A stretch of 40,169 nt of DNA from an uncultured Actinomycetes bacterium. GTDB taxonomy: Bacteria > Actinomycetota > Coriobacteriia > Coriobacteriales > RUG033. The notes beneath the pieces were generated by a model. That model had not been told where the DNA came from. It worked only from the letters and a program-made list of their open reading frames with translations, and did not search any database. Of this stretch, positions 1,334 to 34,461 are shown one piece after another (position 1 is the first letter of the stretch; each line of letters begins with the position of its first letter). Where the stretch lies: positions 1 to 40,169 of the forward strand of contig OMWF01000257.1 in assembly GCA_900314665.1 (NCBI GenBank), given 5' to 3'. A program made the translations under genes and the position numbers.

Positions 1334-2557
<1,224 letters not shown>

Positions 2558-2634
2558 GCGCCGGCCGCCATTGACACGTCGTGGGGGCGGCTCGCATACA
2601 CAAGGCAGCTGCTCGCGTAATGGGAGGTCGGCAT

Positions 2635-4056: not shown

Positions 4057-4093
4057 GCGGCCGATGCCATAGTCCTTGATCGGAGCGCAACGA

Positions 4094-4150
4094 GAAGGGC
4101 CGCACCGCGCAGGGTGTTCCGTAGAAACCCGGTGCGCGGTGCGGCCCTTC
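4094..4150. terminator. Long inverted repeat between convergent argH and PBP genes; probable bidirectional terminator
   Basis: GAAGGGCCGCACCGCGCA (4094-4111) is the exact reverse complement of TGCGCGGTGCGGCCCTTC (4133-4150). The inner segment can pair further (GGGT..TTC/GAAACCC). Confidence 0.75.
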
Positions 4151-4176
4151 GTGCGTTATCTCATGGGCGCGAAAGA

Positions 4177-6426: not shown

Positions 6427-6656
6427 GCAACCTCCCAGTCTGCGGCAGCTCGTGAACCCCTATTATCATCCTCCGCATGTCAGTCTGTCAGGTGGATGGC
6501 CGTTGCAACCGGGTCAAACGCCGGCCAGACGTGGCACAGGGCGTGCCCGGTAGCGGTGAGCGGCCCGTTTTTGACCCTATGCCTTAAACGATCGCCCCTC
6601 GTGCGCTACTCTGAAGCCTTACCTGAGAGGACAGAGGACCGAGAGAGGACAGTGCA

Positions 6657-9131
6657 GTGGGAGCTACCGGTGGGTCTTTACGGCAACGTACGTTCGAGCT
6701 GCTGGCGCCGGCCGGCACCGAGGAGGCGGCGCGGGCCGCGCTCGCCAACGGGGCCGATGCGGTCTATCTGGGCCTGGGCGAGTTCAACGCCCGCCGCAAC
6801 GCCCAGAACCTGGGGCTTGAGGAGCTCGAGCGGATCTGCCGGCTCGCCCACCTGGGCGGGCAGCGCATCTACCTGACCGTCAACACCGTCCTCGCCGGCG
6901 AGGAGCTCCCGCGCGCGCTCGCCTTGATCGACCAGGCTTGGAGGGCCGGCATCGACGCGGTCATCGTCCAGGACCTTGGGCTTCTCAAGCTGCTCACCGA
7001 AACGATGCCCCAGGTGGAGGTGCACGCCTCCACGCAGATGAACATCCAGGACGCGCGGGGCGTGGAGCTGCTGGCGCGGCTGGGGGCCCGCCGGGTGACC
7101 TTGGCCCGCGAGCTCAGCCTCGAGGAGCTCTCCTCCCTGGCCGCGCTCGGGGTCGAGCTCGAGGTCTTCGGGCACGGCGCGCTCTGCGTCTGCGCCTCCG
7201 GCCAGTGCCTGATGTCGAGCCTCATCGGCGGGCGCTCCGCCAACCGAGGCCTGTGCGCGCAGCCCTGCCGCCTACCCTACCTGCTGGTGGATGAGGAGGG
7301 GCGGCCCCTCGCCGACCCTGACGAGGTGGGGCGCTACCTGCTCTCGCCCAAGGACCTGAGCACCATCGACATCATCCCCGAGCTCATCGGCACCGGGGTC
7401 TCATCGCTCAAGATCGAGGGCCGCATGAAGTCCCCGCAGTACGTGGCCACCACCACCGCCGTCTACCGGTGGGTCATCGACCGGGCGCTTGCAGGCCGCC
7501 CCGCCGCCCCCAGCGCTGGTGCGCGAGACGACCTGGCGGAGGCCTTCTCGCGCGGGTTCACCACCGCGTACCTGACCGGCCAGCGCGACATGGGCATGAT
7601 GGGCCCAAAGCGGCCCAACAACCGCGGAATCAGGGTGGGGCGCGTCTCCGCCCTGGGAGGGGGCCTGGTGGAGCTTTCGCTCGACCGCGCCATCCGCTGC
7701 GGCGACGTGCTCGAGTACTGGACCTCCCGCGGCGCCGTGGCCGAGCGGGTGTCCTCGCTCGAGTTTCACGGCCAGGCGGCGGACGAGGCGCCGGCGGGAT
7801 CGAAGCCGCGTCTTTCCGTGAGCCGCCCGGTGGCGCCGGGCGACCGCGTGTTCCGGGTCTCAAACGCCCGCCTCGAGGAGCGCGCGGCCAAGAGCTACGA
7901 GGGCTTCGCGGGCGTGGTGCGGCCGGTGGAGGTGCGGGTCGCATGCCGGCTGGGCGAGCCGCTCGCGGTGACGCTCGCCGACCGCGAGGGGCACCTGGCG
8001 TCCGCCGCGGGCCCGCAGGTCGAGCCGGCTCGCACCAAGGCCGTCACCGAGCAGGACATCCGCGAGCACGTGGGCCGCTTCGGAGGCACCTGCTTTACCC
8101 CGGCCTCCTGGGACATCGACCTCGACGAGGGCGTGGGCGTGGGCTTCTCGCTTCTCCACCGCCTGCGCCGGGAGGCAGCCGAGAAGCTCGAGGAGGAGCT
8201 GCTCGCGCCCTATGCGGAGCGCAGCCAGCAGCCGCAGCCCCTGCTCGCCGTCGAGCGGGAGGAGGCGGGGGCAAAGCGAGCCGATCGCCCCGCCGACCCC
8301 TCGCAGGCGCTGGTGTCGCTGCTGGTGAGCGCCGAGAACGCCGATGCCGCCCGCGAGGCGGCGAAGGGAACCCCGGTGCGCATCGAGGTGCCGGCGGTGG
8401 CGCTTGCCTTCGAGGGGGAGGCGGCGGCCCCCCTGCGCCGCGCCTTTGACGAGGGGGCGGCGCTGATGATGCCCGTCAACTGCCATGACGGACGCGACGC
8501 CCGGGTCATGGAGCTGGTGGGGGAGGGGCGCACGGTGGTGGCCGAGAGCCTCTCGCTGCTCGACGGCTGCGTTCGAGCGGGGGCTTCGGTCGAGGTCGGC
8601 CCCCATCTGCCGCTGTGGAACGCGCCCGCCATCGAACTGGTCAAATCGCTCGGTGCCAGCCGGGTCTGGCTCACCCCAGAGCTCTCGCTCGCGCAGATCG
8701 GCGCGCTGGCGGGGTCGTCGGCGCTGCCTCTCGGGCTCACGGTCTCGGGTGCCCAGGAGCTGATGGTGACCGAGCATTGCGGGCTCATGGCCATCGGGCC
8801 CTGCCAGGAGCGCTGCTCCTCGTGCGCGCGTCGGCGCCGTCGCACGTATCTGCTCGACCGCAAGGGCTACCGGTTCCCGTTGCAAAGCGACGCCGTGGGC
8901 CGCAGCCACCTCTACAACGCGGTGCCCCTCGACCTCGGCCCCCAGCTGCCCGACCTGCTGGCCAGCGGGGTCGGCGCGCTGAGGGTCGACGCCACCCTGC
9001 TCGGGGCGGACGAGGTGGGGCCGGCGCTGGAACGCATGCTGGAGGGGCTTGCGCGCGCCCAGGCGGGGCGCTCGCCGTTGTCCAAGCTCGGCGGCACGAC
9101 CACCGGGCACCTGTTTCGCGGCGTGCGATAG
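6657..9131 (+). CDS. U32 'peptidase' family Fe-S protein, long RlhA-like form (probable RNA hydroxylation enzyme) with a DUF3656-like middle region
   Basis: ELLAPAG, GADAVYLG, HASTQ, LARELS, HGALCVCASGQC...NRGLCAQPCR and LKIEGRMK motifs. Second degenerate C-terminal half with MVTEHC...CQERCSSC and TTGHLFRGV. Confidence 0.85.
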   Translation: MGATGGSLRQRTFELLAPAGTEEAARAALANGADAVYLGLGEFNARRNAQNLGLEELERICRLAHLGGQRIYLTVNTVLAGEELPRALALIDQAWRAGIDAVIVQDLGLLKLLTETMPQVEVHASTQMNIQDARGVELLARLGARRVTLARELSLEELSSLAALGVELEVFGHGALCVCASGQCLMSSLIGGRSANRGLCAQPCRLPYLLVDEEGRPLADPDEVGRYLLSPKDLSTIDIIPELIGTGVSSLKIEGRMKSPQYVATTTAVYRWVIDRALAGRPAAPSAGARDDLAEAFSRGFTTAYLTGQRDMGMMGPKRPNNRGIRVGRVSALGGGLVELSLDRAIRCGDVLEYWTSRGAVAERVSSLEFHGQAADEAPAGSKPRLSVSRPVAPGDRVFRVSNARLEERAAKSYEGFAGVVRPVEVRVACRLGEPLAVTLADREGHLASAAGPQVEPARTKAVTEQDIREHVGRFGGTCFTPASWDIDLDEGVGVGFSLLHRLRREAAEKLEEELLAPYAERSQQPQPLLAVEREEAGAKRADRPADPSQALVSLLVSAENADAAREAAKGTPVRIEVPAVALAFEGEAAAPLRRAFDEGAALMMPVNCHDGRDARVMELVGEGRTVVAESLSLLDGCVRAGASVEVGPHLPLWNAPAIELVKSLGASRVWLTPELSLAQIGALAGSSALPLGLTVSGAQELMVTEHCGLMAIGPCQERCSSCARRRRRTYLLDRKGYRFPLQSDAVGRSHLYNAVPLDLGPQLPDLLASGVGALRVDATLLGADEVGPALERMLEGLARAQAGRSPLSKLGGTTTGHLFRGVR

Positions 9132-16806: not shown

Positions 16807-17556
16807 ATGGCGCGGGACAGGGGACGACTGCTGCTGCACGCTTGCTGCGGTCCGTGCACGATCGAGCCGCTCAAGCTGCTCATCGGCGAAGGATGGCGGC
16901 CCGCCATCTTCTACTACAACCCCAATATCCATCCCCAGGCCGAGTATCGGCATCGGTTGCAGGTCATCGGCGATTACGCCCGAGCGCAGGGCGTAACGCT
17001 CATCGAAGGCCCCTATGATCCCGAGCGATGGCGGGCGCAGGCGGGCTGCTTTGGCGATAGACGACCCGAGCGCTGCCGCGCCTGCTACCGAATGCGCCTT
17101 GAGGAGAGTGCCCGCTTTGCCAAGGAGCATGGCTTCTCGGCCCTCTCCACTACCTTGACGGTGAGTCCTTATCAGTATGTGGGGGCCATCGGCGAGGAGC
17201 TCGAGCGGGCCTGCGGCGACGGGTTGGAGCCGATCTTCAGGGATTTCAGGCCGTATTACCCGGAGGCCACCCGCATCTCCCGGGAGCTTGGCATGTACCG
17301 GCAGAATTACTGCGGCTGCTCGTTCTCCGATGCGGAAGCGGCCGCCGAACGCAAGCAGAGGCGCGAGCAGCGCCGCGTCCAAGCCGAGAAGCGGGCGCAC
17401 GAGCGGGAGGAGCGCGAGGCCGAGCTGGCTCCGCAACGCGAGGCGGCGCGCAAGAAGCGCGAGGAGTACGACCGGCTGCAACGAAGAAAGCGCGAGGTGC
17501 GCGATGCGTTGCGGGCGCAACGCAGGGCGCAGCAGACGTCCATGGACCAGGAGTGA
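16807..17556 (+). CDS. queH: Epoxyqueuosine reductase QueH with charged C-terminal extension
   Basis: LLLHACCGPC, YNPNIHP..EY, RCRACY.MRL, TTL.VSP and YRQNYCGC.FS motifs; adjacent to queA and tgt. Confidence 0.93.
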   Translation: MARDRGRLLLHACCGPCTIEPLKLLIGEGWRPAIFYYNPNIHPQAEYRHRLQVIGDYARAQGVTLIEGPYDPERWRAQAGCFGDRRPERCRACYRMRLEESARFAKEHGFSALSTTLTVSPYQYVGAIGEELERACGDGLEPIFRDFRPYYPEATRISRELGMYRQNYCGCSFSDAEAAAERKQRREQRRVQAEKRAHEREEREAELAPQREAARKKREEYDRLQRRKREVRDALRAQRRAQQTSMDQE

Positions 17557-19867: not shown

Positions 19868-20191
19868 GGGCGGCCGGCACCGGCGGCGGCTGCGCTCCGT
19901 CGTGCCGACGAGCGCCGAGACGCACTTGGGGCGGCCGGCGCGGGCGGCGTCCGCATGCTTTGGCAGCCGTGCTCTATGACAGCCGAGCGGCGGGCACCAG
20001 TACACGGAAAGCGGGCCCGGGGGCGGCACGTCTTGTACCAAACGGTGTATCATCTGCGAGAATAAACGGGGGTAGACAAGCGCGCGCAGGGGCGTATCGG
20101 GGTTCGCGCGTTTGCATCCGCGCAATGCCCACAGACGCTGTCTTTCGGATACGGATGGCCAACTGGGCCTGTTGTCGCTTTGAGGAGGGTC

Positions 20192-21871
20192 ATGGCACGC
20201 AAAAAGGACGATGCGTCCGAAGAGTTCAAGATGGGCGTGGGCGCAGGGAAGCGCGAACGCTCCAAGGCGGAGCAGAAGCGCGAGCGCAAGGCCGCCAATC
20301 GGGCTGCGGCGCGCGAGGCTGAGGAAAACGCCGACAAGGTCTCAGAACGCACCAGGGCGGATGCCGAGGAGCGGCAGAGCGAGCGTGAGCGCCTGGCAAG
20401 CAGAGGCGGCTCTTCCCGCGCCCATCGCCATGGGCATAAGTCGGTGCGAGACCGGCACAACATCACCCTGCTCGTCGTCTTGGCCTGCGTGGTGGCCTTT
20501 GCGGTCTTCATGTTTGTGCCGCCTGCCAAGACCATCACGCAGGGCCTTGACATCCAGGGCGGCCTCTCGGTCATCATGACCGCCTCGCACCCGGATGGCT
20601 CCGCCGTCACCAACGACGAGATGCAGGAGGCCATCTCCATCGTGGAGCGCCGCGTCAACTCGCTCGGCGCCTCAGAGGCCACAGTCCAGCAGGATGGCTC
20701 CAACTCGATTCTGGTGCAGATTCCCGGCGTGGAGGACTCGGACACCGCCTTGACGACTATCGGCCGCACCGGCACCCTTGAGTTCGTCGACCTGAACGAC
20801 ATCTCAGATGCCTCCGAGGTGCTCGCCATCATGCGGGGGCAGACCGGCCAGACGCTTGAGCCGGGAACTTACACCCCGTTCATGACCGGCGACTCCATCA
20901 CCAACGTCACCATCGGGCAGGAGTCGCGCGGATCCGCCTCCTACGCCGTCAACCTGACCCTCAACGGCGAGGGCACGCAGGCCTTCGCCGACGTCTCGAC
21001 CGCGCTCGTCTCGACCCACGGCCAGATCGCCATCGTGCTCGACGGCGTGGTTCAGAGCGCGCCGGCGGTGCAGAGCGCGATCACGGGCGGACAGGTGCAG
21101 ATCACGGGCAATTACACGCTCGAGGAGGCCAAGTCCCTGCAGACGGTGCTCGAATCCGGCGCCCTGCCGGTCACCCTGACCTTCTCCGAGGCGCGCACCG
21201 TGGGACCCACCCTCGGCCAGGAGTCTCTGAGCCAGGCCGTCATGGCGGCTCTGGTGGGCATGGCCATCGTAATCGTCTACCTGCTCTTCTTCTACGGCGG
21301 CCTGGGCATCCTGACCGCTGCGAACCTGATCGTCTTCGGCCTCATCTACCTCGGGCTTCTGGCGGTGCTCTCGCGGCTCGGGGTCTTTGCCCTCTCGCTT
21401 GCCGGCTTGGCGGGCATCGTGCTCACCATCGGCATGGCGGCGGACTCCTCGATCCTCGTCCTCGAGCGCTTCCGCGAGGAGATCCGCATGGGCAAGTCCA
21501 TCAAGTCGGCCTCCATCTCCGGCGTCCGCCACGGCATCGGCACCTCGATCGACGGCGACGTGGTCTCGCTCGTCTCGGGCATCGTGCTCTTCATCGTGGC
21601 CGTGGGCGCCGTCAAGGGCTTTGGCCTCACCCTGGTCCTCGGCATCCTGGTCGACATCCTGACCATGTTCATCTTCAAGGCGCCCATCATCCGCCTGTTG
21701 GCGCCCGGCCAGATCACCCGCCATCCGGGCTTCTGGGGGCTCTCCGCCGACGTGGCCGAGGGCGTGGCCCATGGGGCGGGCGACAACGACGAGTCCTCCT
21801 CCAAGCATCGCAGGAAGAAGCACGCTGCGTCGGACGGCGCAGCCGAGAAGGGAGGTGCCGACCGTGCGTAG
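20192..21871 (+). CDS. secD: Protein translocase subunit SecD
   Basis: GLDIQGG, RVNSLGASE, AIVLDG, SGALP, VGPTLG and LTIGMAADSSILVLERFREE motifs. ATG at 20192 after GAGGAGG. Confidence 0.96.
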   Translation: MARKKDDASEEFKMGVGAGKRERSKAEQKRERKAANRAAAREAEENADKVSERTRADAEERQSERERLASRGGSSRAHRHGHKSVRDRHNITLLVVLACVVAFAVFMFVPPAKTITQGLDIQGGLSVIMTASHPDGSAVTNDEMQEAISIVERRVNSLGASEATVQQDGSNSILVQIPGVEDSDTALTTIGRTGTLEFVDLNDISDASEVLAIMRGQTGQTLEPGTYTPFMTGDSITNVTIGQESRGSASYAVNLTLNGEGTQAFADVSTALVSTHGQIAIVLDGVVQSAPAVQSAITGGQVQITGNYTLEEAKSLQTVLESGALPVTLTFSEARTVGPTLGQESLSQAVMAALVGMAIVIVYLLFFYGGLGILTAANLIVFGLIYLGLLAVLSRLGVFALSLAGLAGIVLTIGMAADSSILVLERFREEIRMGKSIKSASISGVRHGIGTSIDGDVVSLVSGIVLFIVAVGAVKGFGLTLVLGILVDILTMFIFKAPIIRLLAPGQITRHPGFWGLSADVAEGVAHGAGDNDESSSKHRRKKHAASDGAAEKGGADRA

Positions 21872-22781
21872 GTTCATTACCAAGGACATCCCGTTCATGC
21901 GGGTTCGCAAGGTCTTCTACGCCATCTCGCTGGCCCTGGTCGTCATCTCCATCGTGGCCATCGGCGCCCGCGGGCTCAACCTGGGCATCGAGTTCCAGGG
22001 TGGAACTTCCATCGACTTCACCAGCGCCGAGGGCATCTCCACCGAGCAGATGCGGCAGGCCTTCGACGATGCCGGCGTGAGCAACGCCACCATTCAGACC
22101 ACCTCCACCAACGGGCAGAGCGGCTTTCTGGTGAGGACGAGCGAGACGGTCCCCGACACCGCCGCCGCCATCGCCAACCAGGTGGGCGCGCAGCTCGGCC
22201 TGCCCTCCGACTCCTACCAGGTCACCACCATCGGCCCCGAGTGGGGCAGCAACGTGATGCGGCAGTCGCTCATCGCCTTCATCATCTCCATCGCCGCCAT
22301 CATCGTGTACATCTCGATCCGCTTCGAGTACAAGATGTCCCTGACGGCCATCCTGGCGCTGTTCCACGACCTCATCATCATCGTCGGCATCTACGCCCTG
22401 ACCGGGCGGGAGATCACCCCCAACGTGATCGCCGCCCTGCTCACCATCCTCGGCTACTCGCTGTACGACACGGTGGTCGTGTTCCACCGAATCAATGAGA
22501 ACGCCAACCCCTCCATGAAGCACTCGTACTTCTGGACCGCCAATCACTCCATCAACGAGGTGTTCATCCGCACCATCAACACCACGCTGACCTCGCTCAT
22601 CCCGGTGCTGTGCATGCTCTTCTTTGGCGGGGCCACGCTCAAGGACTTTGCCTTCGCCATGGCCCTGGGCCTCATCTTCGGGTCCTACTCGTCGATCGGC
22701 GTCGCCTCCCCGCTGTTTGCCGCCTGGAAGACACGCGAGCCGGCCTACAAGCGCCTGGCCGCCAAGTACGGCGAGGCGTAG
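21864..22781 (+). CDS. secF: Protein translocase subunit SecF
   Basis: GIEFQGG, YISIRFE, ALFHD, LTILGYSLYDTVVVFHRI.EN, RTINT and GSYSSI motifs. GTG at 21864 after GGGAGGT overlaps the secD end. Confidence 0.96.
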   Translation: MRRFITKDIPFMRVRKVFYAISLALVVISIVAIGARGLNLGIEFQGGTSIDFTSAEGISTEQMRQAFDDAGVSNATIQTTSTNGQSGFLVRTSETVPDTAAAIANQVGAQLGLPSDSYQVTTIGPEWGSNVMRQSLIAFIISIAAIIVYISIRFEYKMSLTAILALFHDLIIIVGIYALTGREITPNVIAALLTILGYSLYDTVVVFHRINENANPSMKHSYFWTANHSINEVFIRTINTTLTSLIPVLCMLFFGGATLKDFAFAMALGLIFGSYSSIGVASPLFAAWKTREPAYKRLAAKYGEA

Positions 22782-22790
22782 GGGAGCGGC

Positions 22791-25700
22791 GTGAGCTTGG
22801 ACAGCTGCGAGCAACATAGAAGGTGGGAGCTCAGGCCCGCCGACGAGAACCGCGTCAGGCAGCTCCAGTCAGAACTGGGGCTGCCCCATTTGGTGGCCCG
22901 CACCCTGGTTGCTCGCGGCATCGACACGCCGGATGGCGCGCGGGTCTTCTTCGAGCCCTCGCTGGCGCGCGATTGGGCTGACCCGACGGTCATCCCCGGC
23001 CTGACGGACGTGGCAGACGCCGTCGAGGCTGCACTCGACGGAGGCCAGAAGATCGCCATCTTCGGTGACTTCGACGTGGACGGCGTGACCGCCACCGCGG
23101 TCCTGGCGCGCGCCCTCCGCTCGCTCGGTGCCGAGGTGGTGCCGTTCCTGCCGATGCGGGAGGGGGAGGGCTACGGCCTCTCGGTGGCCGCGCTCGAGCG
23201 GCTGCTCGCGCACGACCCCGACTTCATCGTCACCGTCGACAACGGCATCGCTGCCGCCGCGGAGGTGGCCTGGCTGCTTGACCGTGGCGTGAGGGTCGCC
23301 GTCACCGACCACCATGAGCCGGCAGACCTGGTGCCCGAGGGGGTCCCGGTCTGCGACCCCAAGCTCGCCGCCGAGGGTCCCTCCCGAGAGCTCGCCGGGG
23401 TGGGCGTGGCCCTCAAGCTCGTGTGCGAGCTTGGGCGCCGCCGCGGCCAGCCCGATCTCTGGCGCAGCCTCACCGACCTCGCCTCCCTCGGCACGGTGGC
23501 CGACCTGATGCCCTTCACCCCCGAGAACCGCTCCCTGGTGGCGGATGGGGTCGCGCGCATCAATGCGGCGCCCCGCCCGGGCATCGCCGCCCTGGCGGCT
23601 TTGGCGGGGGCGGACACCCGGGAGATGACCTCCGAGTCCCTGTCCTTCTCGCTCATCCCGCGCATCAATGCCGCGGGACGCATCGACGACCCCATGATCG
23701 CCCTCGATCTCCTGCTGACAGACGACCTCGACACCGTCAACCGGGCGGCGGCCCAGCTCGAGGAGATCAACACCCGGCGCCGTCAGATAGAGTCGGAGCT
23801 GTCCGAGCAGGCCACGGCCCAGGCCGAGCAGATCTATCACGGCGAGCGAGCGCTGGTGCTCGCCGGCGAGGGCTGGCATGAGGGGGTCAAAGGCATCGTC
23901 GCTTCCCGGCTGGTCAACACCTACAAGGTGCCCACCATCCTCTTCTCGATCCACGACGGCATCGCCCGCGGCTCGGGTCGCACCGTGGGGTCGATCAACC
24001 TCTTCCAGGCGGTGAGCGCCTGCTCCGACATCCTGGAGCGCTTTGGCGGACACGAGGCGGCGGTGGGGGTGACCGTCAAGGAGGAGAACCTCCCGGAGTT
24101 CACCCGCCGCTTCACGGCGGAGATGGACAAGCTTCCCGAGCGGGCCTTTGTCAACGTCCGAAAGGTCGACGCCCTGGTGAGCCTCTCCGAGCTCACCTTT
24201 GAGAACCTCGACAAGATCCGGCTGCTCCAGCCCTTTGGACAAGGGATGCGCGAGCCGCTCTTCGTAGCCCCCCACGTTTTCATGGACAACCGCGGCGTGG
24301 TCGGCAAGACCGGGGACCACCTGCGCTTCACCGCCACCGACGGTCTTTCGCGGGTGCCCGCCATCAGGTTTCGCTGTCCCCAGATTGACGAGTTCCTCGA
24401 ATGCGACTCGGCGGTCGACGTCGTCTTCGAGGGCCGGGCGGAGGAGTGGCACGGGCGCTGCCAGGCTAAGATGATCGTGCGCGACATCGAGCAGATACCA
24501 GGGGAGGAGGACCCTCAGGTCGATGACGGCACCGTCTCCGGCCGCCTGATGGCCCACGCAGATGAATACCTGGCCGCCGGTCCCTATGTCGGGATCGAGG
24601 AGGCCGTCTCGTTCCATACCAAGGTGGCTGGCGTCACCTTCGAGGGGCGCCAGGACCGCATCGCCGGGCTTGCCGCCGGCGACGAGCTGGCCCTGGTGCG
24701 CGAGCCGGACAACGTCCATGACCCGCACGCGGTCGCGGTCCTGTCATCAGCCGGGCAGGTGGGTTTTTTGAACCGGCGGCTCGCGGAGCGGCTGGCGCCC
24801 TTGATGGACGGAGGAGCCGCCTACGGCGCCTGGGTGACCGAGGTGACCGGCGGCATGTGCGTCAAGGACTCGGACGACCAGCCCGATGAGCTCGCCCGGC
24901 CCGCGGCCCTGGGGCTCAACATCGAGGTTCGGCGCGTCGGCGCTGCCGCGGCGGCAGAGGGCGGGCCTGGCCAAGAGGACGCATCGACGCGGCGCGCCCG
25001 CTGGGCGGCCCTTGCGGATGACGAGCTCGACGAGCGCCTCAAGGAGGCCCTCATCGGGTCTGCCGCCATGCATCAGGCCCAAGTCGACGCCCTGGCCAAT
25101 CTCAAGGCCGGCCGCTCGACCCTGGTGGTGATGGCCACCGGCCGCGGCAAGTCCCTCATCTTCCACCTGCACGCCGCCCGCACCGCCCTGCGTCAGGGAA
25201 AGGCCTCCGTCTTCGTCTACCCGCTGCGGGCCCTGGTCGCCGACCAGCTGGTTCATCTGAGCGACGTGCTTGCCCGCTTCGGCCTTGCCGCGCGGGTGCT
25301 CACCGGCGAGACGCCTCGGCAGGAGCGCGAGGAGGTCCTCGGCGCACTGGCTTCCGGGGACGTCCATGTGATTCTCACCACCCCCGAATACCTGGCCCTG
25401 CACGCCGGACAGCTGGGCCAGGCGGGGAGGATCGGCTTTCTCGCCGTCGACGAAGCCCATCACATCGGGCTCGCCAAGAGTGGCCACAGGAGCGCCTACC
25501 ACCAGCTGCCCCAAGTTCGCGAGCAGCTGGGGGAGCCGGTCTGCCTGGCGGCCACCGCCACCTGCCGCCCCGAGGACGCCCGCGCCATTGAGGAGACGCT
25601 CGACATCGGCGCCCGCGTCCTCGACCCCGCCATCCGCGAGAACCTGGGGATAGACGACCAGCGCGCCGACCGTCCCGGCAAGGTGCGCGACACTTACCTG

Positions 25701-26528
25701 GCCTCCGTCGCCGCATCCGGCGAGAAGCTCATCGCCTATACCAGCTCGCGCAACGGCACGGTCCGGCTGGCGCGCATGCTGCGCAAGCGGCTGCCGCAGC
25801 TTGCCGGCCGGATCGCCTACTACCATGGCGGTCTGCCGCGGGCTGAGCGCCTGGCGGTGGAGGAGGCCTTCCGTACCGGCGAGGTCGCCTGCCTGGTCGC
25901 CACCAGCGCCTTTGGCGAGGGGGTCAACATCCCCGACATCCGCCACGTGGTGCTCTACCACCTGCCCTTCAATGACGTCGAGTTCAACCAGATGTCGGGG
26001 CGTGCCGGGCGCGACGGCCGGCCCGCCACCGTCCACCTGCTCTACTCCCGCCCCGACCAGCGCATCAACGAGCAGATACTGGGGTCGGAGGCGCCTTCGC
26101 GCACCGACCTGGCGGTGCTCTACCGGGCGTTGCACCGTCTGGCCCAGCAGGGCGCCCTGGCCACCGTTGAGGGGGCGGAGCCGCCAGCTGGGACGGACGC
26201 CGTGCTCGTCGAGCGCCCCGCCGTGACCCGCGCCCAGCTGGTCGAGGAGTGCCTGAGGGACGACGTCCGCTGCGGACTCGACGAAGACGGCGTCTCCACC
26301 GGGCTGGCGGTCTTCTCGGAGCTTGGATTCGTGAGGCTCACCGGCAAGGGGTCGGGGCGGCGGATCTGCTACGTGGAGCACCCGCTCCATGCCGACCTGG
26401 CGACATCGACGCGCTACCGCGAGGGCCAGGCCGAGCTGGAGGAGTTCTCGGCCTTCGCCACCTGGGCGCTCGGAGCTCCGGCGGAGGAGGTGCTCGCCCG
26501 CATCAACCGGGCCATCCTGCCCGCGTAG
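22791..26528 (+). CDS. recJ: RecJ ssDNA exonuclease fused to a HIRAN domain and a RecQ-like DEAH helicase
   Basis: RecJ motifs GDFDVDG, TVDNG, TDHH, GTVAD, PRINAAGR, GSGR and GGH. HIRAN-like block FHTKVAGVTFEGRQ...LVREPDN.HD..AV.V...VGFL. SF2 motifs ATGRGKS, YPLRAL, DEAH, TAT, YHGGL, ATSAFGEGVN and QMSGRAGRDG. One uninterrupted 1245-aa frame. Confidence 0.92.
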   Translation: MSLDSCEQHRRWELRPADENRVRQLQSELGLPHLVARTLVARGIDTPDGARVFFEPSLARDWADPTVIPGLTDVADAVEAALDGGQKIAIFGDFDVDGVTATAVLARALRSLGAEVVPFLPMREGEGYGLSVAALERLLAHDPDFIVTVDNGIAAAAEVAWLLDRGVRVAVTDHHEPADLVPEGVPVCDPKLAAEGPSRELAGVGVALKLVCELGRRRGQPDLWRSLTDLASLGTVADLMPFTPENRSLVADGVARINAAPRPGIAALAALAGADTREMTSESLSFSLIPRINAAGRIDDPMIALDLLLTDDLDTVNRAAAQLEEINTRRRQIESELSEQATAQAEQIYHGERALVLAGEGWHEGVKGIVASRLVNTYKVPTILFSIHDGIARGSGRTVGSINLFQAVSACSDILERFGGHEAAVGVTVKEENLPEFTRRFTAEMDKLPERAFVNVRKVDALVSLSELTFENLDKIRLLQPFGQGMREPLFVAPHVFMDNRGVVGKTGDHLRFTATDGLSRVPAIRFRCPQIDEFLECDSAVDVVFEGRAEEWHGRCQAKMIVRDIEQIPGEEDPQVDDGTVSGRLMAHADEYLAAGPYVGIEEAVSFHTKVAGVTFEGRQDRIAGLAAGDELALVREPDNVHDPHAVAVLSSAGQVGFLNRRLAERLAPLMDGGAAYGAWVTEVTGGMCVKDSDDQPDELARPAALGLNIEVRRVGAAAAAEGGPGQEDASTRRARWAALADDELDERLKEALIGSAAMHQAQVDALANLKAGRSTLVVMATGRGKSLIFHLHAARTALRQGKASVFVYPLRALVADQLVHLSDVLARFGLAARVLTGETPRQEREEVLGALASGDVHVILTTPEYLALHAGQLGQAGRIGFLAVDEAHHIGLAKSGHRSAYHQLPQVREQLGEPVCLAATATCRPEDARAIEETLDIGARVLDPAIRENLGIDDQRADRPGKVRDTYLASVAASGEKLIAYTSSRNGTVRLARMLRKRLPQLAGRIAYYHGGLPRAERLAVEEAFRTGEVACLVATSAFGEGVNIPDIRHVVLYHLPFNDVEFNQMSGRAGRDGRPATVHLLYSRPDQRINEQILGSEAPSRTDLAVLYRALHRLAQQGALATVEGAEPPAGTDAVLVERPAVTRAQLVEECLRDDVRCGLDEDGVSTGLAVFSELGFVRLTGKGSGRRICYVEHPLHADLATSTRYREGQAELEEFSAFATWALGAPAEEVLARINRAILPA

Positions 26529-26690: not shown

Positions 26691-28955
26691 ATGGCAGACG
26701 GAGCCATCATTCCAGCCACCCAGCAGGGCATCAAGTCCTTGGACAACTTCGACAAGGTCATAGACCTGGTCTCGCGCTACCTCGACAAGAGCGACATCGA
26801 CCAGATCTGCCGCGCCTACGACTTTGCCTACGAGCGCCACAAGGGGCAACACCGAAAGAGCGGCGAGCCCTTTATCATCCATCCCGTCGAGGTGACGCTC
26901 ATCCTCGCGGACCTTAAGATGGATGCCGACACCCTCACCGCCGCCTTGCTCCATGACACGGTGGAGGACACCACGGCCACCCTGGACGAGGTGTCCGAGG
27001 CCTTCAACCCCACCGTGGCCGAGCTGGTCGACGGCGTGACCAAGATCAGCCGCCTTGAGATCGAGAGCTTGTCCGAGTCGCAGGCAAACAACATGCGCAA
27101 GATGCTGATCGCCATGTCAAAGGACATCCGCGTCATCGTGATCAAGCTGGCCGACCGCCTGCACAACATGCGGACGCTGATGGCCCTACGTGAAGACCGC
27201 CGCATCTTCAAGTCCCGCGAGACCATGGAGATCTACGCGCCGCTGGCCCACCGCCTGGGAATCAACTCGATCGCCTGGGAGCTTGAGGACCTGTCCTTCT
27301 TCTACCTCGAACCGGCCAAGTTCCAGCAGGTCTCCAAGATGGTGGCGGAGAGCCGTACCGCTCGCGAGGAGTACCTGGAGCGCGCCACCAAGCTGCTGCG
27401 CGAGGAGCTCGACCGGGTAGGCATCAAGGGCACCATCTCCGGGCGCCCCAAGCACCTCTACTCCATCTACAACAAGATGACCCAGAAGGGCAAGGCCTTC
27501 TCTGAGATCTATGACCTCATCGCCCTGCGCATCATCGTAGACACCGTCAAGGACTGCTACTCCGCCTTGGGCGCGGTGCACACCCTGTGGCATCCCATGC
27601 CGGGACGCTTCAAAGACTACATCGCGATGCCCAAGTTCAACATGTACCAGTCGCTGCACACCACGGTCATCGGACCTGACGGGCGCCCGCTCGAGATTCA
27701 GATCCGCACCGAGGAGATGCACCGTATGAACGAGTACGGCATCGCCGCGCACTGGCGCTACAAGGAGGGCGGCTCGAGCAGCGCCACCGACGAGAAGTTC
27801 GACCAGCAGCTCACCTGGCTGAGGCAGATGCTCGACTGGGAGCACGAGACCGACGACCCCAAGGAGTTCATGGACTCCCTGCGCATCGACCTCTTTGACT
27901 CGGAGGTCTTTGTCTTCACCCCCAAGGGCGAGGTCATCAGCCTGCGCAGCGGCTCCACTCCCATCGACTTCGCCTACGCCATCCACACCGAGGTGGGCAA
28001 CCACTGCGTCGGCGCTAAGGTCAACGGCAAGATTGTGCCCCTCGGCTACGAGCTGCAGATGGGCGACCGGGTGGAGATACTCACCCAGAACAGCTCCGTT
28101 CCCTCGCGCGACTGGCTCAACATCGTCAAGACGCCGCGGGCCCGGGCCAAGATCCGCTCGTACTTCTCCAAGGCGAGCCACGATGACGACGTGCTGCACG
28201 GCCGAGACCTCGTGGTGCGCGAGCTGCGCAAGCACGGCATCGGCTTCTCCTCGTCGACCGCCACCCGGGCGATGACCGACCTGGCAAGCGACCTGGGATT
28301 TCCCACCGAGGACGACCTCCTGGCCGCCGTGGGCACCAACAAGATCTCTCCGCGCCAGATCACCAACCGCCTCATCAAGCTCCTGGCCAAGGACGGGCAG
28401 GAGGCGGCCGAGGCCAAGATGCCGAGCTTCACCCTCAACACGCCGATGGAGACGCCGCGCCCCGCTCGGCGCAAGCGCTCGGGCACCGGCGTGGTGGTCA
28501 AGGGGCTGGACGACGCCTTGGTCCGCCTCTCGCACTGCTGCAATCCCATGCCCGGCGACGATATCGTGGGGTTCGTGACCCGCGGTCGCGGCGTGTCGGT
28601 GCACCGGGTCGACTGCCCCAACGCCAAGTCGCTGCTCGCCAACCCCGAGCGGATCATCAGCGTGGAATGGGACACGGGGTCGGCCACCACCTTCCAGGTG
28701 GAGATCGTGGTCGAGGCCACCGACCGGCTCTACCTGCTGCAGGATGTCATCACCGCGCTCTCCGGCAGCGGTGTGAACGTCCTCTCCAGCTCCACCACCA
28801 CCCATCGGGACGGGCTGGTAGAGATGCGCTTCCTCTTTGAGGTCTCGGCCACCGAGCGCCTGGAGAGCATCCTGCGCGACGTGCGCGCGGTGGAGGGGGT
28901 CTTCGACGCCCACCGGATGCTGCCCACCAAGAGCGGCAAGAACAGGCGCGCGTAA
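26691..28955 (+). CDS. rel: Bifunctional (p)ppGpp synthetase/hydrolase (long RSH)
   Basis: H.GQ.RKSGEP, LHDTVED (HD domain), KLADRLHNMRTL, GRPKH.YSI, YQSLHT and EIQIRT motifs, TGS domain (DFAYAIHT), CC.P.PGD and a C-terminal ACT domain. Confidence 0.97.
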   Translation: MADGAIIPATQQGIKSLDNFDKVIDLVSRYLDKSDIDQICRAYDFAYERHKGQHRKSGEPFIIHPVEVTLILADLKMDADTLTAALLHDTVEDTTATLDEVSEAFNPTVAELVDGVTKISRLEIESLSESQANNMRKMLIAMSKDIRVIVIKLADRLHNMRTLMALREDRRIFKSRETMEIYAPLAHRLGINSIAWELEDLSFFYLEPAKFQQVSKMVAESRTAREEYLERATKLLREELDRVGIKGTISGRPKHLYSIYNKMTQKGKAFSEIYDLIALRIIVDTVKDCYSALGAVHTLWHPMPGRFKDYIAMPKFNMYQSLHTTVIGPDGRPLEIQIRTEEMHRMNEYGIAAHWRYKEGGSSSATDEKFDQQLTWLRQMLDWEHETDDPKEFMDSLRIDLFDSEVFVFTPKGEVISLRSGSTPIDFAYAIHTEVGNHCVGAKVNGKIVPLGYELQMGDRVEILTQNSSVPSRDWLNIVKTPRARAKIRSYFSKASHDDDVLHGRDLVVRELRKHGIGFSSSTATRAMTDLASDLGFPTEDDLLAAVGTNKISPRQITNRLIKLLAKDGQEAAEAKMPSFTLNTPMETPRPARRKRSGTGVVVKGLDDALVRLSHCCNPMPGDDIVGFVTRGRGVSVHRVDCPNAKSLLANPERIISVEWDTGSATTFQVEIVVEATDRLYLLQDVITALSGSGVNVLSSSTTTHRDGLVEMRFLFEVSATERLESILRDVRAVEGVFDAHRMLPTKSGKNRRA

Positions 28956-30061: not shown

Positions 30062-30147
30062 GTCGGGAATTCTCTGTAGCCGCCGTCCTCGTCTGCTAGG
30101 GTAGGATACAGTCAATGGACGGCTCGCATCTGTCAGGAAGGACCGCA

Positions 30148-30813
30148 ATGGCTGTGACCCAGGTGGGCACTATCGCAATCGACCGGTTGGTGGTCGGCAT
30201 GATCGACACCAACTGCTACATCCTCACGAGCGCAAGCGGATGCGTGGTCATCGACCCCGGAGGCGACTTCCCGGTCATCCTCGAGCAGCTGGCAGGCCGC
30301 ACGCCCGACGCCATCGTCCTCACCCACAGGCATCCGGACCACATCGACGCGCTGGCTGCGCTTAAGAAGGCCACGGGCGCCCCGGTCTACGCCCACGAGC
30401 TCGACGTGGAGGGGATTGAGCATCCGGAGACGGACCACGGGCCAGGGTCGGTGTTCGGCGCCCCCGAGGGCACGAAGGTCGACGTGCACCTGCACGATGG
30501 CGACGCCGTCGTGGCGGGCGACATCGCGCTTTCGGTCCTCTTCACGCCCGGGCACACGCCGGGCGGCATCTCGCTGCTGCTCTCAGACCCTGCAGGCGAG
30601 CCGGCCGTGCTCTTCTCGGGAGACACGCTCTTTGCCGGCGGCATCGGCCGCACCGACCTCGAGGGCGGCAGCTACCAGCAGATCGTCGACTCCATCCGCA
30701 CCAAGCTCGCCCCGCTTCCCGACCGGGTGCGGGTTCTGCCCGGCCATGGGCCCGGCTCCACGGTGGCGGCCGAGCGGCGGGCAAATCCGCTCATGAGCGG
30801 CGTGCGGAGGTAG
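30148..30813 (+). CDS. MBL-fold metallo-hydrolase (glyoxalase II/YcbL-like)
   Basis: TNCY, IDPG, THRHPDH (HxHxDH), TPGHTPG, FSGDTLF...GRTD and PGHG motifs. ATG at 30148 after GGAAGGA. Confidence 0.93.
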
Positions 30814-31495: not shown

Positions 31496-32965
31496 CTAGA
31501 GCGCCTGGGGCAGGGCGGCGTCGATGCGGGCCAGGGTGCGCTCGCGGCCCAGCAGCTCGACCGACCCGAAGAGGGGCGGGGACACCATCGAGCCGGTGGT
31601 CGCCACGCGCAGGGGCTGGAAGACCTTCTTGGGCTTGAGCTCGAGCTTGTCGCACACGGCGCGCAGCTGCTCCTCGATGGTGGCGGCGTCCCACGGCTCG
31701 CAGCCGGCGAGCGCCTCGCGGCAGGCGATGAGCGCGTCTTTGGCGCCTTCCTTGGCGAGCACCTTGGCCACGGACTTCTCGTCCAGCCCGACCTCGTCGC
31801 CAAAGAGGAAGGCGACCTTGTCGGGCAGCTCCTCCAACCGGTGGATGCGCTCGTTCACCAGCGGCACAATGGCCTCGAACCAGGGTCGGCTGGCGGCAAT
31901 CTCATCGGCCGTGGCCAGCCCCGCGCGCTCGAGGAAGGGCGTGGCGGCGTCGATGTAGGCGGCGGGCGAGAGCTCCATCAGATAATGGAGGTTCATCCAG
32001 TCGAGCTTCTCGACGTCAAAGACGGCCGGGTTCTTGGAGATGTGGCCGAGCTCGAACTTGTCAAAGAGATCCTGGGCCGAGAAGATGGTGGTCTCGCCGT
32101 CGGGGGCCCAGCCGAGAAGCGCCAGGTAGTTGACGAGCGCCTCCGGCAGGTAGCCCTGGTCGCGGTACTGCTCGACGCTGGTGGCGCCATGGCGCTTGGA
32201 GAGCTTCTTGCCGTCCGATCCGTTGATCATGGAGAGGTGGGCAAAGGTGGGGACGGGGTAGCCGAGGGCCTCGTAGATGAGGATCTGCCGGGGCGTGTTG
32301 GAGACGTGGTCGCCGCCGCGGATGACGTGGGTGATGGCCATGTTGGTGTCGTCGCAGACCACCGCGAAGTTGTACATGGGGGTGCCGTCCGAGCGGACGA
32401 GCACCATGTCGTCCATCACCTCGATGGGGAAGCTCATGTGCCCCAGCACGGCGTCGTCAAACTCGACGGGGCCGTGGTCCAGGGGCACCTTGAGGCGCCA
32501 GACGTGCGGCTCGCCCGCGGCGATGCGGGCAGCTGCCTCGTCGGGGTCGATGTTGCGGCAGGTGCGGTCGTAGCCCTCGTAGGCGACGCCCGCCTCCTGG
32601 GCGGCGGCCCGCTTGGCATCGAGCTCCTCCTTGGTGCAGAAGCACGGGTAGACCTGGCCCCGCTCCTTGAGCTTCTCCAGGGCGTCGCGGTAGGTGTCGA
32701 GCCGCTCGGTCTGCAGGTAGGGGCCGTAGTCACCGCCCACCTCGGGGCCCTCGTCCCAGTCCAGCCCCAGCCAGCGCATGGCGCGGAGGATGACCTGCTT
32801 GTTCTCCTCAGTGGAGCGGGTGGGGTCGGTGTCCTCGATGCGCAGCACGAAGGTGCCGCCGGTGTGGCGGGCGTAGGCCCAGTTGTAGATCGCCGTACGG
32901 GCGCCTCCCACGTGGAGCTTGCCGGTGGGGGAGGGTGCGAAGCGGACACGGACGGGAGCGGTCAT
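31496..32965 (-). CDS. gltX: Glutamate--tRNA ligase
   Basis: VRVRFAPSPTG.LHVGG, LRIEDTD, YPCFC, HVIRG.DH and KLSKR motifs plus the anticodon domain (PLRVA.TG...SP). Confidence 0.98.
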   Translation of the reverse strand: MTAPVRVRFAPSPTGKLHVGGARTAIYNWAYARHTGGTFVLRIEDTDPTRSTEENKQVILRAMRWLGLDWDEGPEVGGDYGPYLQTERLDTYRDALEKLKERGQVYPCFCTKEELDAKRAAAQEAGVAYEGYDRTCRNIDPDEAAARIAAGEPHVWRLKVPLDHGPVEFDDAVLGHMSFPIEVMDDMVLVRSDGTPMYNFAVVCDDTNMAITHVIRGGDHVSNTPRQILIYEALGYPVPTFAHLSMINGSDGKKLSKRHGATSVEQYRDQGYLPEALVNYLALLGWAPDGETTIFSAQDLFDKFELGHISKNPAVFDVEKLDWMNLHYLMELSPAAYIDAATPFLERAGLATADEIAASRPWFEAIVPLVNERIHRLEELPDKVAFLFGDEVGLDEKSVAKVLAKEGAKDALIACREALAGCEPWDAATIEEQLRAVCDKLELKPKKVFQPLRVATTGSMVSPPLFGSVELLGRERTLARIDAALPQAL

Positions 32966-33084
32966 GTGATTGGTTCCTCTCAGACATCAGGTATCGGGTC
33001 GGTCGGGCTGTTTTTGGGGTCGGGCTGGCGGACGCCCGCAGGGGCGAGTGCGGCGCACCCGGCGGGATGCGGGGCGCGCACTTG

Positions 33085-34461
33085 TCAGACGAGGCCTCCC
33101 TCGCGCAGGGCGGGGGCGTCCGGCTCGGGGTCGACGGCCAGCGAGAGCGCAGTGGCTCCGCCGTAGGCGTCGGAGATGAGCTTCTGTCGGCTGGCCCGCG
33201 AGTAGGTGCCCGCGAAATGGCCATTATACAGGTAGAGCCCGGTGAGGTTGTGGTAGTCCGCCCACTCCGGGTTAATCGGCTGGCCGGGCTCGCGGCCCTG
33301 CTGCAGGTTGGGCGTGGCGTAGAGGGGCGCAAACTCCTGGAGCACGTAGCCCATGCCCTGGTGATCGGCGAGCACCCGGCGCCACTCGTCGTCGGTCATC
33401 GTGCAGCCGGCAAAGATGGAGTCGGCCCCGTAGCTGTTGGAGGGTTTGATGAGCCACTGCTCGCGCTCGGCCACCAGCTGGTCGAGGTCGGTCCCGGGCA
33501 GGTCGAGACGGGTGGTGTAGGGCACGTGCTCCTCGACAAAGCGCCGCTCGTCGGCGGTGAGCATCTCGGACGAGGCGGGCAGGCGCAGCACCTCGAAGAT
33601 GTTCTTGCAGTGCGCGACCTGGGTGGCAAAGCCGCCTACCAGGCAGACTGCATGGTCCTCGTACGCCCGCACCAGGTCGTCGATCTCTGAGCGGTGGGCG
33701 AGGCAGTCGCTGGTGACGGCCCGACGGTAGATGGCGTCCACCCGCCAGCCGTCCTCGTCGGTGAGCGCGCCGCGGGCGTAGCTCAGGGCTCGGGCGTCGA
33801 TGATCCGGCACTCGTAGCCGGCGGCGGCAAAGCGACGCCGGAAGATCTCGATCTCGTTGGGCGTGGTCACGTCCAAGAAGTCCACGATGGCCACGTGGGG
33901 GTTGTCGACGGCGTTCACAAAGCTCCGGTACACCGTGGCGAACTCGGTCACGAAGGGGTCGAAGAGGGCGAAGGGCGCGATGTGGTGGCGGCGGGCCATC
34001 TCCTGGTAGGCGGGCGTCAGGGCGAGCGCGTCGCCCAGCTCGCGGTCCTCGTTCATGGCGGAGGAGCCGTCGGTGTTGAACTCGCAGAACTTGAAGGCGC
34101 CGGTCTCCTCGTTGAGGAAGATGTCCACCCGGGCCATGGGGATGGGCTGCGGATAGCCGGGGTCGAGGCAGATGAGACGCTCGAGCTCGGGGTCAAATCC
34201 AAAGGGCGCGCGGTAGGAGGGGTCCTCGCGGTAGCGCCTGACGGCCTTGCAGAGGATGGCATGGGTGGTCTCGGCCGCCTGCCTGAGCAGCCGCACGGTG
34301 GGGGCGTCCCACAGCTTGGGCGCGTAGAGGGTGTCGACGACCCGCCCGTGGTAGACCGCGGTCGAGCAGTCGATAGCACGGCGGGCGAGCTCACGTCCCT
34401 CCCTGTCGCCTTCGAGCGATTCGATGATGGAGCGATACTCGGCGTCCAGTGCTTTAGTCAT
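33085..34461 (-). CDS. Circularly permuted ATP-grasp amide ligase (glutathionylspermidine synthase / eukaryotic-GS-like fold)
   Basis: ARVDIF...KFCEFNTDGSS near the N-terminus (permuted order), followed by AIYRR, WLIKPSNSYGA..IF.G, YVLQEF and GLYLYNG.F.G.YSR. Confidence 0.8.
   Translation of the reverse strand: MTKALDAEYRSIIESLEGDREGRELARRAIDCSTAVYHGRVVDTLYAPKLWDAPTVRLLRQAAETTHAILCKAVRRYREDPSYRAPFGFDPELERLICLDPGYPQPIPMARVDIFLNEETGAFKFCEFNTDGSSAMNEDRELGDALALTPAYQEMARRHHIAPFALFDPFVTEFATVYRSFVNAVDNPHVAIVDFLDVTTPNEIEIFRRRFAAAGYECRIIDARALSYARGALTDEDGWRVDAIYRRAVTSDCLAHRSEIDDLVRAYEDHAVCLVGGFATQVAHCKNIFEVLRLPASSEMLTADERRFVEEHVPYTTRLDLPGTDLDQLVAEREQWLIKPSNSYGADSIFAGCTMTDDEWRRVLADHQGMGYVLQEFAPLYATPNLQQGREPGQPINPEWADYHNLTGLYLYNGHFAGTYSRASRQKLISDAYGGATALSLAVDPEPDAPALREGGLV

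Follow-up and report, generated by a model that had tools for sequence, protein, structure and literature searches.

What does a RecJ nuclease do when it comes joined, in one polypeptide, to a helicase of the RecQ type? In the RecF pathway, these two proteins form the textbook pair of helicase and nuclease, and to our knowledge their physical coupling is unsettled. The question is raised by a gene on contig OMWF01000257.1 (assembly GCA_900314665.1), a 40,169-nucleotide stretch of DNA from an uncultured member of the Coriobacteriia, which was analysed whole and is referred to below as the window. The gene lies at 22791..26528 on the forward strand, starts with GTG and encodes 1245 amino acids in the order RecJ, HIRAN domain, RecQ-like helicase and C-terminal domain (CTD). 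We consider, with a probability of roughly 65%, that its product is a single-chain RecQ/RecJ-type 5'-strand resection enzyme, predicted to act alongside a separate RecQ and an AddAB/AdnAB-type enzyme.

The open reading frame (ORF) is single and uninterrupted over its 1245 codons, and six Pfam domains exceeded their gathering cut-offs within it: DHH, DHHA1, RecJ_OB, HIRAN, DEAD and Helicase_C. This is the full domain set expected by an earlier examination of the DNA (the sequence-only reading), whose three-part RecJ-HIRAN-helicase architecture was borne out both by these matches and by AlphaFold modelling, and whose coordinates for Walker A, DEAH and the motif QMSGRAGRDG were exact. Its domain description named these parts correctly but overlooked the conserved CTD at approximately residues 1092-1240.

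The first module is a complete RecJ of DHH-DHHA1-OB type, predicted to act as a 5'-3' exonuclease on single-stranded DNA (ssDNA). The DHH domain (23049..23495, forward strand; residues 87-235; Pfam E 2.5e-18), with D93/D95/D97, D150, D173-H174-H175 and D238, is followed on the same strand by DHHA1 (23850..24122; residues 354-444; Pfam E 9e-14), with G419-G420-H421, and by the RecJ OB fold (24165..24485; residues 459-565; PF17768, E 1.8e-19). The NCBIfam recJ equivalog model TIGR00644 (cut-off 396.9 bits) was passed over residues 33-566 with 459.2 bits, and with 462.4 bits in a search of the genome. The catalytic motifs, which had been described as intact, proved near-invariant among relatives: DFDVDG, D150, the DHH at 173-175, D238 and the GGH at 419-421 were found in the window protein and in all 50 full-length relatives tabulated, and in an alignment of 54 relatives, with identity to the window protein down to 27%, conservation reached at least 90% at D93, D95, D97, D150, D173-H174-H175, D238 and G419-G420-H421. 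A Foldseek search with the modelled RecJ part returned the RecJ of Staphylococcus aureus (8y30, 3.2e-40) and of Deinococcus radiodurans (5f55, 1.2e-39), and the model superposed on 8y30, 5f55 and 2zxo over 505-530 columns with root-mean-square deviations of 2.8-3.8.

The motor is a superfamily 2 (SF2) helicase core in which motifs Q, Walker A, DEAH, III and VI are all present. RecA-like domain 1 (25077..25568, forward strand; residues 763-926; DEAD, E 4.7e-20) carries Q764, the Walker A motif MATGRGKSL (25131-25157; residues 781-789), DEAH (25449-25460; residues 887-890) and TAT (residues 922-924), and RecA-like domain 2 (25710..26018, forward strand; residues 974-1076; Helicase_C, E 1.6e-26) carries motif VI, QMSGRAGRDG (25989-26018; residues 1067-1076). 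At least 90% conservation among the same 54 relatives was seen at Q764, T783, G784, G786, K787, S788, D887, E888, H890 and T924, and in motif VI at Q1067, G1070, R1071, G1073 and R1074; all ATPase motifs were intact in the window protein and in 46 of the 50 relatives tabulated. By sequence, the closest solved structures were RECQ4 (1.8e-33), Cronobacter RecQ (2.1e-32) and Escherichia coli RecQ (8.7e-30), and a family profile scored RecQ at 1.4e-64 as against 4.4e-37 for the best DEAD-box chain. By fold, Foldseek gave RecQ 4tmu (5.7e-23), and VIA-align placed BLM, WRN and D. radiodurans RecQ first (Z 28), with DEAD-box helicases within about 1-3 Z units in a comparison that the RecA domains dominate. 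Thus the claim of a full SF2 core with RecQ-type motifs holds in sequence and in fold. In some other members of the class, the fused helicase scored above the cut-off of the RecQ family model, at 220-270 bits in frames of 1107-1195 amino acids (G021:C7:8034-9182, G018:C2:2097-3245, and G118:C19 and C11), with 269.9 bits for the 1195-residue frame of G021.

Between nuclease and motor lies the HIRAN domain (24612..24938, forward strand), matched by Pfam over residues 608-675 and modelled as a beta-barrel extending to about residue 716, with the motifs GVTFEGRQ and REPDNVHDPHAV. What had been called HIRAN-like was confirmed by the PF08797 profile, which was passed with 43.4 bits against a cut-off of 24.7 (E 3.1e-11). 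The region also aligned to solved structures of the human HLTF HIRAN domain at E about 2e-3, with REPDNVHDPHAV opposite RDPNNPYDKNAI of HLTF. In this alignment HLTF NNPYDKNAI stands against DNVHDPHAV, so that N641 and D644 are kept, opposite the neighbours of Y93 that we take to be numbered N91 and D94, while Y93 itself is replaced by H643; most relatives have Y, F or H at this position. F617 was taken as the equivalent of HLTF Y72, a match made by eye only. Among 40 relatives scanned, 29 matched PF08797, the 11 without a match being rows preselected as HIRAN-less, and one relative (P0131) has a degenerate HIRAN. There are also apparent stand-alone HIRAN-helicase proteins of about 630-670 amino acids (P0143, P0151, P0164 and P0177), and a similar short frame in G103 ends at a contig edge.

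AlphaFold modelling of residues 570-1245 gave a mean predicted local distance difference test score (pLDDT) of 91.7 and a predicted template modelling score (pTM) of 0.89, and HIRAN, both RecA domains and the CTD are therefore predicted to form one compact body. For residues 46-1245 the pLDDT was 90.3 and the pTM 0.65, with a low-confidence linker. This flexible linker from the RecJ to the HIRAN module (24486..24611, forward strand) falls below a pLDDT of 50 at protein residues 572-576 (model residues 527-531). We take the models to show a flexible tether with a rigid module on either side.

A long fusion found in an assembled genome could be an artefact of assembly or gene calling that joined recJ to a neighbouring helicase gene, but nothing was found in favour of such an origin. 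In one relative (G175; locus L093, contig G175:C5) the gene is broken into overlapping frames of 436 and 852 amino acids. The break, between ORFs at 2410-3720 and 3530-6088, falls within the RecJ part and reflects a frameshift or a sequencing error. The uninterrupted frame of the window gene already speaks against an artefact. A 2-kb stretch covering the OB fold, HIRAN and the start of the helicase was found in 20 public runs from 13 studies, recorded as bovine gut, pig gut and manure metagenomes, and contigs from four independent studies bridge the OB-HIRAN-helicase junctions. Their sole length change is an in-frame 3-nucleotide indel in the linker, a GGA insertion after 24502 that was present in contigs of runs X5 and X7, from two of the four studies, and represents strain variation. 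Together with the same architecture in more than 100 protein clusters and in 198 of 201 class genomes, these contigs refute an artefact, to which we give next to no chance, and the check proposed in the sequence-only reading upheld the fusion.

The fusion is standard for the class Coriobacteriia. Residues 570-1245, used as the query, matched 198 of the 201 class genomes sampled at E<=1e-20. Only two of these matches, both from incomplete genomes, were too weak to reach E<=1e-85, and the three genomes without a match were 59%, 92% and 100% complete. A wider search with the same residues gave 2607 proteins at E<=1e-3 among 7997 candidates scored, and 677 clusters (50% clustering) at E<=1e-30; nearly all of the best 120 matches were 1186-1359 residues long with the same Pfam domain set. 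In a sample of the phylum, 29 of 301 genomes matched at E<=1e-40, 23 inside the class and six outside it. These six, out of 278 sampled Actinomycetota genomes outside the class, belong to three family codes (f31, with four of four genomes, f63 and f90), and the remaining 272 genomes of the phylum sample gave no match to the fusion module. None of 401 genomes of the Bacillota phylum to which a Faecalibacterium-labelled genome (G204) belongs matched at E<=1e-40, with two candidates scored per genome, and no fusion was found in five named Bacillota genomes that were searched. One full fusion (P0220) is labelled as a metagenome-assembled genome of an archaeon, a label that may be a binning error. 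As had been anticipated of its annotation, the protein goes under a plain name: where its relatives carry a source label, from Coriobacteriia, Coriobacteriales or Atopobiaceae genomes, it says only 'RecJ'.

The gene lies in a housekeeping locus with the order queA-tgt-secD-secF-recJ-relA. Upstream on the same strand are secD (20180-21871) and secF (21771-22781), with queA and tgt beyond secD, and downstream is a RelA/SpoT family protein (26691..28955, forward strand; TIGR00691, 823 bits). The GTG start stands nine bases past the secF stop codon, with a Shine-Dalgarno-like GGGGAG at 22781-22786, directly past that stop codon and 4 nucleotides before the GTG. A search of the genome (2.27 Mb in 314 contigs, 94.5% complete) with the recJ model found no second copy, and the fused gene is thus the housekeeping recJ of the cell. 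These facts bear on the proposal that the protein is an anti-phage defence helicase-nuclease akin to the DpdF or PsyrT RecQ-like helicases. Its best PADLOC matches were indeed DpdF (188.8 bits) and PsyrT (157 bits), confined to the helicase core; however, the NCBIfam DpdF model gave 133.7 bits against a cut-off of 550, and no partner genes of the DpdF or PsyrT systems were present among the neighbours scanned. The housekeeping locus, the single recJ and the near-universal occurrence in the class argue against a defence gene, and we hold such a role to be extremely improbable. Elsewhere in the window, a 232-amino-acid metallo-beta-lactamase-fold hydrolase is encoded at 30115-30813 (forward strand), its best match being glyoxalase II-like and below all cut-offs, and NCBIfam gave no match for a 249-amino-acid ORF at 16807-17556 or a 441-amino-acid ORF at 31841-33166.

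For the resection enzyme that we favour, a sequence of steps can be proposed. The HIRAN pocket and the CTD would help to seat the enzyme at a junction of single- and double-stranded DNA with a free 3'-OH, candidates being gaps, 3'-tailed or blunt breaks and the nascent strand at a stalled fork. The motor would move 3'-5' along the strand bearing the 3'-OH and peel off its complement, and the tethered RecJ would take up the freed 5' end and digest that strand 5'-3', leaving 3' ssDNA for RecFOR/RecA. The fused protein would in this way do in cis what separate RecQ and RecJ do in the RecF pathway. The polarity logic of the sequence-only reading, in which a 3'-5' helicase supplies the substrate of a 5'-3' exonuclease of ssDNA, agrees with the published cooperation of the two enzymes: in the portion of PMC4846377 consulted, RecJ alone digests 5' overhangs, the 3'-5' helicase RecQ of E. 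coli is required for RecJ to begin resection at blunt or 3'-overhang ends, and RecQ and SSB of D. radiodurans together stimulate RecJ.

Evidence that the two functions belong together comes also from other bacteria. We assembled 80 RecJ loci from many phyla, picked by DHH motif patterns, as a comparison set of ordinary RecJ rather than a survey of the fusion architecture. In seven of them (L052, L055, L063, L067, L072, L080 and L082) a recQ gene follows recJ immediately and in the same orientation, recJ ending near 4630-4860 and recQ extending to about 6550-6775, an operon-like arrangement. The loci are of Bacteroidales type, with labels that include Prevotella, Muribaculaceae and Sodaliphilus, and the adjacency ties the two functions together independently, at the level of the genome. 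The record of L082 names Faecalibacterium prausnitzii; on the tree its RecJ falls with that of Prevotella (support 100), and the contig, with its recJ-recQ pair, may be mis-binned.

The presence of a HIRAN domain next to an SF2 motor would also fit another substrate. The protein could be mainly an enzyme of stalled forks or daughter-strand gaps rather than of break resection, in which HIRAN takes the nascent leading 3' end, as in HLTF/Rad5, the motor remodels or unwinds the fork, and RecJ cuts back the nascent lagging strand. The position of HIRAN N-terminal to the SF2 motor is that of HLTF, and an AddAB/AdnAB-type candidate is already available in this genome for break ends. RecQ and RecJ are reportedly involved in the processing of blocked forks, in work of Courcelle and Hanawalt from 1999 that appears in the reference list of PMC4846377. 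The motor, however, is RecQ-like and not a Snf2-type translocator on double-stranded DNA, and in most of the window's own order HIRAN was lost while the helicase was kept. The present data do not separate fork from end substrates, and we regard a mainly fork-directed role as rather unlikely.

The same losses must be weighed in judging the resection enzyme itself, together with several other points that count against it. At least 48 of the 150 class matches listed are HIRAN-less, starting at query residue 124-163 (the query being residues 570-1245) in frames of about 1110-1310 residues. The loss runs through most families of the window's own order with the helicase retained, and all 19 same-order genomes of the phylum sample show the HIRAN-less start. 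HIRAN would thus appear inessential to the core function, and the window genome is unusual in its order for keeping it. In the HIRAN domain, HLTF Y93 corresponds to histidine (H643) in the window protein; Y93 and Y72 flank the cavity of the HLTF domain and stack on a single-stranded dinucleotide, as described in the section of PMC4666394 consulted. The near-full-chain pTM of 0.65 means that the placement of the nuclease relative to the helicase was not confidently predicted. Polarity, coupling and 3'-end binding are points that we infer from family membership.

The helicase also departs from canonical RecQ. It scored 163.6-166.4 bits on the RecQ family model TIGR00614, below the cut-off of 219.8, and RecQ models align to it only up to position 361 of 591. 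The family consensus has no conserved cysteines past motif VI, where RecQ has its Zn subdomain, and no HRDC family was among the Pfam matches of the window protein at E<=0.1. The aromatic-rich loop of RecQ (consensus DEAHCISQWGxDFRPxY), in which C, S, Q, W, G, D, F, R and P were invariant across an alignment of eight RecQ sequences, is not present in the window protein, which on direct reading has DEAHHIGLAKSGHRSAY; the stretch after DEAH, at the position of the loop, is HIGLAKSGHRSAY. With a score below the cut-off and neither Zn cysteines, HRDC nor aromatic loop, RecQ-like behaviour is not guaranteed. Of the end-resection machine put forward by the sequence-only reading, the parts and their intact motifs stood, while the dispensability of HIRAN in many relatives, one ATPase-dead clade and the departures from RecQ qualify it.

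The ATPase-dead clade comprises four proteins (P0238, P0244, P0249 and P0254; the last is labelled Armatimonadota) in which the RecJ and HIRAN motifs are kept and Walker A, DEAH and motif VI are destroyed. Together with the remnant found in Bacillota RecJ tails, discussed below, it indicates that RecJ can dispense with the motor. The helicase module might accordingly be no working motor but a scaffold that binds DNA or SSB and holds RecJ in place, its ATPase motifs being retained but unneeded. That the clade keeps the whole module without its ATPase motifs, and that long Bacillota RecJ retain a motif-less RecA2 remnant with the CTD, would both fit a scaffold; the C-terminal domain of D. radiodurans RecJ, which is unrelated, binds the SSB C-terminus according to the part of PMC4846377 consulted. 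In the window protein and the 46 relatives with intact motifs, however, every ATPase motif is complete, and conservation of these motifs at 90% or more, even with identity as low as 27%, speaks for selection on catalytic function. A pure scaffold is in our judgement distinctly improbable, and we retain the single-chain resection enzyme as the probable function.

Such an enzyme would not work alone. The sequence-only reading had proposed a survey of whether carriers lack recQ, addAB or adnAB; a role as stand-in for missing recQ or addAB was not supported for the window genome (G000), which encodes a RecQ and two UvrD-like ORFs with a C-terminal PD-(D/E)XK domain. The separate, canonical RecQ scored 461.5 bits, over the family cut-off. 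Its ORF (L001, G000:C112, 3-2465 on the reverse strand) is at least 821 amino acids long and runs off the contig; most RecQ frames of the class have 620-780 amino acids. The two UvrD-like ORFs encode 1206 and 1148 amino acids (contig stretches C9:2469-6857 and C83:841-4158). Upstream of the one on C9, and adjacent to it, is a third PD-(D/E)XK ORF, and none of this AddAB/AdnAB-type set passes the AddA or RecB cut-off. With RecQ and these ORFs in the genome, the fusion is not the cell's sole resection machine, and its role may be narrow or redundant.

Across the class the picture differs from genome to genome. In a survey of 121 genomes, 62 matched the RecQ family at E<=1e-60, three of them through the fusion alone. 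This leaves 59 of 121 in which a stand-alone RecQ was found: in 37 of 52 genomes of family codes f2-f4, in 21 of 68 others, and in the window genome, counts from related and hence non-independent genomes on which no statistics were drawn. About half of the class therefore carries the fusion with no separate RecQ found, whereas the window genome has one.

The CTD (26064..26510, forward strand; about residues 1092-1240) is a winged-helix-like domain common to the long tails of Bacillota RecJ, where it corresponds to the PF10141 region. Among the 54 relatives, L1203, S1206, E1211 (invariant), P1241 and P1244 are conserved at 90% or more. The PF10141 model itself (ssDNA-exonuc_C) was not passed by the window protein (14 bits against 26.4), and none of 40 relatives scanned matched it at E<=1e-3; its sole match in the window genome was the CTD, a weak one (E 0.008). 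In the RecJ of Paenibacillus, the region equivalent to the CTD is Pfam PF10141. Seventeen of the 80 comparison loci encode a RecJ with a tail of at least 60 residues past the OB fold, and a hidden Markov model built from fusions only matched the CTD in 14 of these 17 tails at E 1e-20 to 3e-4, the sources being Bacilli, Clostridia, Negativicutes-type genomes and Desulfosporosinus. A CTD profile made from the window protein and these 14 tails of Bacillota, of which three are from Bacilli like S. aureus itself, matched residues 647-752 of S. aureus RecJ in PDB entry 8Y30 (released 2025-01-29) at 6.8e-13. The fusion-only profile matched the same region weakly (4.3 bits, conditional E 3e-4), a single-sequence search of the PDB with the CTD alone gave no match, and when the CTD was compared by hhalign with the part of RecQ past the core, the probability was 62% (E 7.3e-5).

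The longer of the RecJ tails measure 210-255 residues and appear to hold more than the CTD. The 820-residue RecJ of a Syntrophomonadaceae genome aligned to residues 942-1111 (BLASTP, 27% identity, E 6e-5) with a degenerate motif VI. When eight long tails were compared with the fusion family by hhalign, they aligned across RecA2 and the CTD with 98.9% probability (E 3.7e-17), and without the Syntrophomonadaceae sequence the alignment still began around motifs V-VI and continued to the C-terminal end, with 98.5% (E 1.7e-15). From these alignments to RecA2 and CTD, the PF10141 tail of long Bacillota RecJ looks like a helicase remnant. A FastTree phylogeny of the RecJ core did not recover the fusions as one clade; they were interleaved with tailed Bacillota RecJ, and several adjoined Bacillota-type RecJ on a weak backbone. 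This position fits repeated loss or transfer, as a hint only from a tree in which 33 of the 127 inner branches have support under 80, many rows are of odd composition and the direction of change is unfixed.

A broader history can be proposed tentatively, with the odds somewhat against it. Among Gram-positive RecJ the fusion may have come first, and the extension of about 200 residues in Bacillus and Staphylococcus RecJ would then be a fossil of a RecQ-like helicase with its winged helix, left by repeated loss of the motor. The graded variants would form a series of motor loss, from the full fusion through the HIRAN-less and ATPase-dead forms and the RecA2 remnant with CTD to the CTD only. Coriobacteriia would have kept a working single-chain resection enzyme that the model Firmicutes dismantled, with HIRAN as an optional device for 3'-end targeting.

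Set beside known systems, the protein recombines familiar parts. RecQ and RecJ of the RecF pathway, acting with SSB in E. coli and D. radiodurans, represent the same two enzyme families with the same presumed division of labour, but they are separate proteins, whereas the window protein is one chain with HIRAN in between. Unlike canonical RecQ, its helicase falls under the family cut-off and has no Zn cysteines, HRDC or aromatic loop. The recJ-recQ pairs of Bacteroidales type likewise link the two functions, but as two genes, without HIRAN and with a RecQ that is a full family member. Of the solved structures, S. aureus RecJ (8Y30) matches the RecJ part best (profile 9.6e-183), and it shares the CTD; the long Bacillota RecJ differ from the fusion in having no HIRAN, RecA1 or ATPase motifs. 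HLTF/Rad5 likewise places HIRAN before an SF2 ATPase, and the NxxD core with an aromatic residue or histidine at Y93 is kept in the window family; the motor of HLTF/Rad5, however, is of Snf2 type and comes with a RING, whereas the window protein has a RecQ-like motor, no RING and an attached nuclease. AddAB, AdnAB and RecBCD also combine helicase and nuclease in one DNA-resecting machine, but these are multi-subunit enzymes with SF1 UvrD-like motors and PD-(D/E)XK nucleases, folds for which neither Pfam nor NCBIfam gave a match in the window protein. Natural single-chain fusions of nuclease and helicase exist in WRN, a DnaQ-like exonuclease with a RecQ helicase that is among the top structural matches of the window motor, and in ExoDinG, an exonuclease-DinG protein (PMC12345164, as far as the text consulted describes it). 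Their nucleases are 3'-5' enzymes of DnaQ type, in contrast to the DHH type (5'-3') here; the domain order differs, and DinG belongs to a different helicase family.

The fusion combines parts that are already known, and the separate enzymes show what its job is likely to be. A literature search found nothing on the RecJ-HIRAN-RecQ-like architecture, no study of the protein and no article on the S. aureus RecJ structure 8Y30, which for the three-domain form agrees with the earlier statement that a biochemical characterisation was not known; subscription journals and supplements lay outside that search, and a description elsewhere is possible. A natural covalent fusion that is standard in a class with common gut genera, going by source names, offers a ready-made system in which to study RecQ-RecJ coupling, and allows one to ask what a bacterial HIRAN domain does, the HIRAN-less, ATPase-dead and remnant forms serving as built-in natural mutants. 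The annotation 'RecJ' hides a helicase, and roughly half the class genomes in the sample lack any further gene of the RecQ family. The link to PF10141, for its part, would give meaning to an unexplained domain of the RecJ of B. subtilis and S. aureus.

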